The translations under genes and the position numbers were made by a program. Shown piece after piece: positions 56,546 to 57,646 of a DNA stretch of 64,000 bases; within the stretch, counting starts at the first letter, position 1; every line of letters begins with the position of its first letter. Where the stretch lies: assembly GCF_003790525.1 (NCBI RefSeq), contig NZ_CP033635.1, one strand, 5' to 3'. This DNA is from Escherichia coli (GTDB lineage Bacteria; Pseudomonadota; Gammaproteobacteria; Enterobacterales; Enterobacteriaceae). Under the pieces are notes generated by a model that saw only the letters and a program-made list of their open reading frames with translations, was not told the DNA's origin and did no database searches.

Positions 56546-57646
56546 TTAGAACTGATAGGTAATTCCCGTTGCGACGATGTTATCGGTGCGAATATCTACG
56601 GCACGGGTAAAGTCGCTTTCATCAATCAGGTTGATTTTATAATCAACATAGGTCGACATATTTTTGTTGAAGAAATACGTCGCACCAACGTCGATATACT
56701 CAATCATGTCCTGGTCGCCGTAGCGGCCCAGATCTCTGCCTTTCGATTTCAGGTAAGCGAGTGATGGGCGCAAGCCGAAGTCGAATTGATATTGTGCCAC
56801 TACTTCAAAACTTTGTGCTTTGTTAGAGATATAACCATCGCCATAGGTGGTCATGTTTAATGTTTCAGCGTAATTAGCTGCAAAGTAGATGTTGTTGGCA
56901 TCATATTTTATACCTGTAGCCCACAGTTCTGCATTCTTACCGGAGGCATTGAGAGGATTAGCAGCGGCTCTTTCCTGCGCATTTGTCCGATCGGATTTGG
57001 TATACACCGCACCGATACCAAAGCCATCATAAACATAAGTTGAGGAGATACCGAAACCGTCACCATTGGCACGCGTGTAGTCAGCACCATAAAGATGACC
57101 ATTGTCAGTGCGTTCATTTTTGCCTTGATATTGCGCGGCAAAGTTCAGACCTTCAATTAAGCCGAAGAAATCGTAGTTGCGATAGGTTGCCACACCGGTA
57201 GTACGGTATGTCATGAAGACATCTTTCTGACTCCAGGTATCGCCACCAAATTCTGGCAACATATCGGTCCATGAACCAATGTCATAGCCGACACCGTAGT
57301 TACGACCATAGTCCAGAGAGCCAAATTCACTAATTTTTAAACCTGCATAGGCCAGACGGGTCTTGTTACCGCGCGAGCCGTTGGCTTCATCGTTATAGCC
57401 TTTAAAATCATATTCCCAGTGACCAAAACCAATCATTTGATCATTGATTTGCGTTTCTCCTTTAAAGCCGAGACGGGCATAAGTTTTATCACCATCGTCA
57501 CGCTTATCATCAGTAAAATAACGTAGAGCGGTAACCTTGCCATAAAGGTCGAGTTTATTACCATCCTTGTTATAGACTTCGGCAGCGTGTGCTACGTTCG
57601 CAGCTAACAAACCAGTTACAACCACCGCAACTATTTTTAATTTCAT
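56546..57646 (-). CDS. yddL: OmpC/OmpF/PhoE-family general porin, full length (366 aa), at the position of K-12 yddL
   Basis: Signal peptide [22 protein letters not shown]-terminal [18 protein letters not shown]-terminal ...ATGITYQF with terminal Phe; symbol assigned by position only. Confidence 0.7.

Follow-up and report, generated by a model that had tools for sequence, protein, structure and literature searches.

A gene encoding a complete general porin lies beside yddG in the 64,000-nucleotide stretch of Escherichia coli DNA analyzed here (contig NZ_CP033635.1), to which we refer as the window. The gene is the Escherichia ortholog of Salmonella ompD and occupies the ancestral slot of that gene next to yddG, between fdn and narU-narZ. 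The yddL gene of E. coli K-12 is the 5' stub of the same porin gene, left behind by an illegitimate deletion of 1.5 kb. Strong purifying selection acts on the gene in the E. coli lineages that have kept it. As judged from codon bias, the upstream region, and a small RNA target site, it probably serves in E. coli as a minor porin or as one expressed conditionally, unlike the dominant OmpD of S. Typhimurium. We have high confidence in this account as a whole, in which the window carries an intact gene for a presumably trimeric general porin. The features discussed are listed in Table 1.

Table 1. Features of the porin locus, in window coordinates
Feature	Coordinates	Strand	Evidence and remarks
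Porin CDS, OmpD-type, full-length form of yddL	56546..57646	-	Intact ORF, ATG start, 366 aa plus stop
Predicted signal peptide, codons 1-21, cleavage before AEVYNKDG	57584..57646	-	Alignment with mature OmpC/OmpK36 chains and K-12 porins
Shine-Dalgarno sequence AAGGAT, 8 nt 5' of the ATG	57655..57660	-	Read from the sequence; invariant in E. coli/C. koseri/Salmonella alignment
Intrinsic-terminator-like hairpin and T-run, 11 nt past the stop codon	56511..56534	-	9 pairs, 6 of them G-C; loop of 6; tail TTTTGATTTAA
LRR gene 1, 418 aa, EspR1-like	53798-55054	-	ORF scan, profile matches
LRR gene 2, 421 aa	55117-56382	-	ORF scan, profile matches
yddG, aromatic amino acid exporter, synteny anchor	57904..58785	-	NF008676, 471 bits
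yddG-porin intergenic region, AT-rich, 257 bp	57647..57903	-	GC 34-38%; alignment with Salmonella and C. koseri
Candidate sigma-70 promoter ATGTCA-18-TAAAAT	57692..57721	-	Inferred; block partly conserved in Salmonella and C. koseri
CRP-like palindrome TGTGATCGAAGTCGAA, 2 mismatches to TGTGA-N6-TCACA	57792..57807	+	Lead only; GATCACA half invariant in E. coli/C. koseri/Salmonella
First stretch missing in K-12, 1,532 bp	55831..57362		Takes porin codons 94-366, the terminator, and the 5' part of LRR gene 2
Second stretch missing in K-12, 642 bp	54857..55498		Between 11-bp direct repeats GATAAATCAAT
Segment absent from B2-type E. coli	53672..57827		APEC O1:K1:H7 strain E16002; narU abuts yddG

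Sequence features of the porin

The initial annotation of this stretch had described a complete porin of 366 residues with a signal peptide, a terminal Phe, and a terminator of its own, and each part of that description was confirmed. An ORF scan found one continuous reading frame, free of internal stop codons and frameshifts. The Pfam model PF00267 (Porin_1) matched residues 27-366 of the product from end to end (model positions 1-337 of 337) with a score of 448.6 bits against a cut-off of 23.7. The protein also passed, barely, the NCBIfam "porin OmpC" model NF007841 (495.3 bits against a cut-off of 484), which is a subfamily model and not an equivalog. Past the stop codon the T-run follows a hairpin with a 9-bp stem, and the stretch after the stem reads TTTTGATTT.

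Forty-eight distinct sequences of solved porins matched the protein at E ≤ 1e-100, and the OmpC, OmpK36, OmpF, and PhoE structures aligned over the full length with E values of about 1e-127 to 1e-100. The mature chains of these four proteins span query residues 22-366, those of OmpC and OmpK36 starting at their mature residue 1 or 2. Because the solved mature chains align from residue 22, the signal peptide is predicted to be cleaved between AHA and AEVYNKDG. The protein thus has both a cleavable signal peptide and the mature N terminus AE(V/I)YNKDGNK by which the family is recognized, and it ends in the C-terminal aromatic residue associated with outer-membrane assembly (...TGITYQF-stop).

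The residues that line the channel constriction were retained. In OmpF numbering, the alignment shows that the basic cluster K16/R42/R82/R132 and the L3 acidic residues D113 and E117 are all kept, as are the PEFGGD motif, the E71/R100 latch pair, and the C-terminal Phe. The constriction-zone residues fall at porin residues 37, 58, 97, 148, 128, and 131-136. An AlphaFold2 model computed from a 25-sequence alignment had a mean pLDDT of 56, with values below 50 for the N-terminal 120 residues; because this model was poor, the fold is assigned from sequence homology alone. The gap-poor, full-length alignment to solved trimeric porins points to a 16-stranded, trimer-forming β-barrel.

The 90%-identity protein cluster that contains the porin has 9,017 members, among them 603-residue LepA (elongation factor 4) proteins, one of which is the representative. 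The presence of LepA members looks like a database clustering artifact, and as a result the full-length 100% match was missing from the protein search.

Orthology to ompD

Assignment of the protein to the OmpC family, as made in the initial annotation, holds in the broad sense of the Porin_1 and NF007841 matches but not in the sense of orthology to ompC. Alignment to K-12 OmpC, OmpF, OmpN, and PhoE, which had been recommended there together with alignment to yddL, gave identities of 59-62% (OmpC, 61.7%). Identity was 78% to the porin of C. koseri, 72-75% to those of other Citrobacter, 72-74% to Salmonella OmpD over the full length, and 67-69% to the prophage porins NmpC and Lc. A neighbor-joining tree placed the protein in the OmpD/NmpC clade, apart from OmpC/OmpN, PhoE, and OmpF. 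OmpC proper (b2215) was rejected as the identity of the gene product, being encoded at another locus (ompC-micF-rcsD) and lying on a separate branch of the tree. OmpC and K. pneumoniae OmpK36 (2J1N, 6RD3) nevertheless share the fold family and are the best solved matches, with about 426-428 bits over the full mature length, and PGAP gives the window gene the name "porin OmpC". Position 80 in OmpF numbering is Lys in the window porin, OmpF, PhoE, and OmpD, whereas it is Trp in OmpC and OmpN.

The genomic position, like the tree, points to OmpD. C. koseri and Salmonella contigs carry the gene order fdnI-fdnH-fdnG / yddG (EamA) / porin / GFA / MFS (smvA) / TetR / narU / narZ. The porin of the window occupies the same slot as in these contigs, and the only difference is that two LRR genes replace GFA-smvA-smvR. 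Its location between the LRR genes and yddG had been given correctly at the outset; the farther neighbors are narU-narZ and fdnG. In E. albertii, yddG is followed by the porin gene, here split by IS1, and then directly by the narU upstream region at a join corresponding to window position 53671. LRR sequence is absent from the E. albertii locus, as it is from the Salmonella and C. koseri loci.

The fraction of synonymous differences from Salmonella (pS) was 0.715 for the porin gene, 0.705 for yddG, and 0.678 for narU. The GC content of the porin gene is 44%, compared with 44.7% for phoE, 46.6% for ompN, and 34-35% for the two LRR genes. Synonymous divergence like that of the flanking core genes, taken with synteny and GC content, points to orthology with ompD by vertical descent. 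From the synteny, the E. albertii arrangement, the pS values, and the GC content it also follows that the low-GC LRR pair was inserted later, next to a porin gene that was there ancestrally, and "O-island 62" is therefore a composite and not one recently acquired island.

The porin resembles Salmonella OmpD (STM1572) further in having identical constriction-zone residues, although the surface loops of the two proteins diverge. Between C. koseri and Salmonella themselves, the porin genes have a pS of 0.40, far below the 0.74 of the adjacent yddG genes; this could reflect either a strong constraint from codon bias in an abundant porin or exchange of the porin gene between the two lineages. The E. 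albertii locus with the IS1-split porin gene spans 7137-11417 of CP034213. A second IS1 fragment there truncates narU, and the gene next to narU is not narZ but an RHS/VgrG (type VI secretion) module takes that place.

The K-12 locus and the origin of yddL

The narU-yddG interval of MG1655 contains yddJ (a pseudogene), yddK (318 aa), and yddL (b1472; 291 nt, 96 aa), the last at 7739-8029 of the K-12 locus sequence used for comparison. Alignment showed the K-12 locus to be collinear with the window apart from two missing stretches (Table 1). The junction of the 1,532-bp deletion reads ...CTTGCCG followed by CGCGAGCC, with imperfect homology of only a few bases. As a result of this deletion, K-12 YddL consists of residues 1-93 of the porin, all 93 of which are identical, followed by three foreign codons (KNL) and a stop. 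The promoter region and start codon of yddL are likewise those of the porin gene, but with codons 94-366 gone the 96-residue product is unable to form a barrel. K-12 thus has a short fragment at this position, as the initial annotation had stated, and yddL is a 5' remnant and not the same intact gene.

The 642-bp deletion fuses LRR gene 2 to LRR gene 1, so that K-12 yddK is a chimera of both. Okeke et al. (2011, PMC3079680) described the island as disrupted in K-12 by insertion of yddK. Such an insertion is unsupported as the cause of the disruption, given the origin of yddK as a deletion chimera of two LRR genes. In a TraDIS study yddL was scored as "essential only by TraDIS" (PMC5821084). 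More likely, the AT-rich DNA here, perhaps bound by nucleoid proteins, forms a transposon cold spot; this would also be relevant to whether the full-length gene is silenced.

Distribution among E. coli genomes

The occurrence of the gene was surveyed in 5,426 complete E. coli genomes, in which the full-length state was scored by the 3' 817 bp that K-12 lacks. This segment was present in 1,118 genomes (20.6%), at ≥80% coverage in 1,101 of them; the counts refer to sequence presence and include pseudogenes. The 5' stub and upstream region were found in 4,271 of the 5,426 genomes. By subtraction of the 1,118, about 3,150 genomes (about 58%) have the stub and upstream region only, and about 1,155 (about 21%) have neither part, a state represented by APEC O1:K1:H7 strain E16002. 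The porin is therefore dispensable, as about 80% of E. coli no longer have it.

Carriers include EAEC 042 (99.9% identity) and strains of serotypes O157:H7, O55:H7, and O145:H28. The published distribution of O-island 62 over ECOR-D, EHEC, and Shigella (PMC3079680) agrees with this set. At least 1000 public contigs encode the exact window protein, and at least 1000 carry the O157 allele. All 59 full-length matches that were sampled are annotated by PGAP as "ompC: porin OmpC", a label that is also given to pseudogenes; in the 817-bp 3' segment, only two of the 59 differ in length. Decay was nevertheless seen among carriers. The gene is frameshifted in SCU-316, where the PGAP label is still "ompC: porin OmpC"; it is interrupted by an IS3 insertion in ETEC6334, and in strain 144 it is affected by a deletion mediated by or associated with IS1.

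On its left side (53671/53672), the segment that B2-type strains lack has its edge exactly where E. albertii rejoins the narU upstream region. Given this shared edge, B2 strains may have lost the porin gene alone from an LRR-free ancestor, rather than having had the whole 4.2 kb deleted.

Upstream region and predicted expression level

The proximal ∼200 bp upstream of the porin gene align with the regions upstream of ompD in Salmonella and C. koseri. Blocks common to all three are the Shine-Dalgarno sequence, the motif TTAAAAAYAGT, and a GATCACA half-site. The intergenic region is 257 bp in Escherichia compared with 524-568 bp in Salmonella and C. koseri, the distal ∼300 bp being absent. The search for a promoter, which the initial annotation had advised, gave a candidate sigma-70 promoter, but its 9 of 12 matches are no better than chance; 10 such sites were found in this AT-rich stretch where 4.9 were expected. 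The CRP-like palindrome is likewise no rarer than chance, as a search of the window with the CRP consensus returned fewer matches than did shuffled sequences (13 versus 29). For K-12, the sole entry between yddK and yddL in the Shimada promoter catalog is an "internal promoter", which says nothing about the promoter of the porin gene. An Rfam search of positions 56300-58000 returned nothing besides one chance miRNA match (E 0.33).

Pairing of the porin mRNA with small RNAs was predicted with ompC and the Salmonella and C. koseri ompD genes as controls for MicC, and with ompF as the control for MicF. Pfeiffer et al. reportedly located, in 2009, a MicC pairing site at codons 23-26 of Salmonella ompD. 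The Salmonella positive control reproduced this site. The predicted MicC duplex at +68..+79 had z scores of -2.8 and -2.9 for Salmonella and C. koseri ompD, respectively, and ompC gave a z of -5.2. In the window and O157 alleles the site is broken by two substitutions (GAAGUCUAUAAC), and the z score is about 0. A RybB seed match at +19..+26 requires two G-U pairs and is no better than in shuffled mRNA (z -0.3). No pairing signal with the porin mRNA was obtained for MicF, for which ompF served as positive control.

Codon usage, measured as Wright's effective number of codons (Nc) and taken only as a proxy for abundance, also distinguishes the E. coli gene. Its Nc is 51.5, compared with 35.7 for Salmonella ompD and 33.6 for the C. 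koseri gene; the K-12 porin genes have values of 29.0 (ompC), 37.1 (ompF), 46.3 (phoE), and 40.4 (ompN). The weak codon bias argues against a major, abundant porin and fits low expression. In S. Typhimurium, OmpD exceeds all other porins in abundance (PMC4215857). The E. coli copy differs from it in having no strong codon bias, no ∼300-bp distal upstream region, and no MicC target, and from these three losses we infer a minor or conditional porin. Searches of the literature on Z2239, ECs2076, and EC042_1601 found no functional study and no transcript, protein, or channel data for the gene.

Purifying selection and proposed function

Selection was assessed on three alleles, those of the window, of O157:H7, and of AST85, the last being the most divergent E. 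coli allele found (95.8% over the 3' 817 bp). Pairs of these alleles differ by 19-38 synonymous and 3-6 non-synonymous changes, giving dN/dS values of 0.02-0.04. The porin is therefore maintained by selection where it is present. On the strength of the same values it is plausible that the strain expresses this additional general porin.

By homology to solved trimeric porins, the precursor would be exported by the Sec system and cleaved after Ala-21, and the C-terminal Phe would direct BAM-dependent insertion into the outer membrane. The mature protein is expected to form a water-filled barrel in which the L3 loop, with its PEFGGD motif, narrows the channel. Small hydrophilic solutes, β-lactams included, could then pass by passive diffusion.

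A wider proposal is that in E. coli the ancestral OmpD was demoted from a major pore to a low-level, niche-specific one that is kept only in lineages of phylogroup D/E/F type (EAEC 042, O157/O55, Shigella), beside LRR effector-like genes, and that the polymorphism is then a real determinant of strain differences. We regard this as rather unlikely. Were it true, the division into presence, stub, and absence (about 21, 58, and 21%) would shape phage and colicin susceptibility or antibody targeting, or else the entry of antibiotics once OmpC and OmpF are lost.

Alternative explanations

The porin gene is contiguous with the low-GC LRR genes, and O-island 62, with a GC content of 33-36%, has been reported as restricted to ECOR D, O157/O55, and Shigella (PMC3079680). 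It could accordingly be supposed that porin and LRR genes were acquired together, recently and by horizontal transfer, on a single low-GC island, and that K-12 carries a disrupted form of that island (Okeke et al. 2011). The GC content of the porin gene, well apart from that of the LRR genes, does not agree with this, nor does the adjacency of yddG and porin in Salmonella, C. koseri, and E. albertii, all without LRR genes. The pS relative to Salmonella equals that of flanking core genes, and K-12 yddK arose by deletion with no insertion. For the porin, recent acquisition is thus already largely refuted, and we consider it very improbable. Still less credit can be given to derivation from a degraded lambdoid phage, by which the gene would be a prophage-type porin of the NmpC/Lc kind and equivalent to the nmpC pseudogene of K-12. 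The EAEC 042 genome paper did match Ec042-1601 to a K-12 pseudogene, "nmpC/ompD" (PMC2808357), and the NmpC and Lc porins belong to the same broad clade. Those porins, however, reside in the lambdoid prophages DLP12 and PA-2, whereas the gene studied here sits in a core slot between yddG and the LRR pair, and phage genes are absent from its flanks. In K-12 the corresponding gene at this position is yddL, identical in 93 of 93 residues, and not nmpC, and the chromosomal porins of Salmonella and Citrobacter are both closer (72-78%) and syntenic. The locus comparison has already refuted a prophage origin, which retains next to no probability.

Descent from the ancestral ompD leaves room for a gene that is intact yet effectively silent, kept off by nucleoid proteins, comparable to the quiescent porins OmpN and Salmonella OmpS1/S2, and without a role in permeability under ordinary conditions. 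Several observations are compatible with silence: the weak codon bias, the AT-rich upstream region, promoter matches of only 9/12, the loss of the distal upstream region of the Salmonella type, the transposon cold-spot pattern behind the TraDIS score of yddL (PMC5821084), and the repeated loss of the gene across E. coli. Set against them is the low dN/dS over 19-38 synonymous changes, which indicates that the protein is still selected and hence made in some condition. We consider effective silence possible but doubtful. It overlaps with our preferred reading of a minor or conditional OmpD ortholog and does not exclude it.

Relation to previous work

The porin gene is already known, with annotations in over a thousand RefSeq genomes. 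Okeke et al. (PMC3079680) described z2239 of O-island 62 in EDL933, which is the same gene, and remarked on the resemblance between its 5' end and K-12 yddL. The authors of the EAEC 042 genome paper (PMC2808357) regarded Ec042-1601 as "an apparently functional ompD". The EDL933 gene z2239, its Sakai ortholog, and Ec042-1601 lie at the same locus as the gene of the window, with nucleotide identities of 97.5% (O157) and 99.9% (042); the O157 allele differs by 3 amino acid changes, and LRR gene 2 is frameshifted there. E. coli ompD has been equated with the prophage pseudogene nmpC in PMC2808357 and in later papers, and a 2023 study treated K-12 yddL as an uncharacterized small β-barrel protein (PMC9976479).

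The present analysis states explicitly that the syntenic ompD ortholog survives in K-12 as the yddL stub; it also contributes both deletion junctions, a census, and evidence for demotion drawn from codon bias and the MicC site. These additions are refinements concerning a known gene and no discovery. They correct a recurring confusion in which ompD is taken to be nmpC and yddL a small protein (PMC2808357, PMC10321414, PMC9976479). About one-fifth of E. coli genomes, O157:H7 and EAEC 042 among them, carry an extra porin gene of full-length type, some copies being frameshifted or IS-disrupted, and models of permeability, phage receptors, and porin-loss resistance based on K-12 ignore it. The practical value is modest, and any phenotypic weight would depend on expression.

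Neighboring genes

The two LRR genes are paralogous, with ∼29% identity to each other. LRR gene 1 corresponds to an O157 gene that bears the annotation of type III secretion effector EspR1. LRR gene 2 is intact in the window, in 042, and in CFSAN061771, and frameshifted in O157; in CFSAN061771 PGAP annotates it only as a 288-nt pseudogene fragment. On the other side of yddG, fdnG appears as two ORFs (59017-59604 and 59653-62064) because it contains an in-frame TGA selenocysteine codon, and Rfam places a SECIS element (RF01989, 84 bits) immediately past that codon, at 59599-59657 on the plus strand. Near the start of the window, the pair of Rfam sites at 3148-3211 and 3771-3922 (minus strand) comprises gathering-level matches to the small RNA RydC (92.5 bits) and to a sok antitoxin RNA (105 bits), the latter implying a hok/sok-type toxin-antitoxin locus there.
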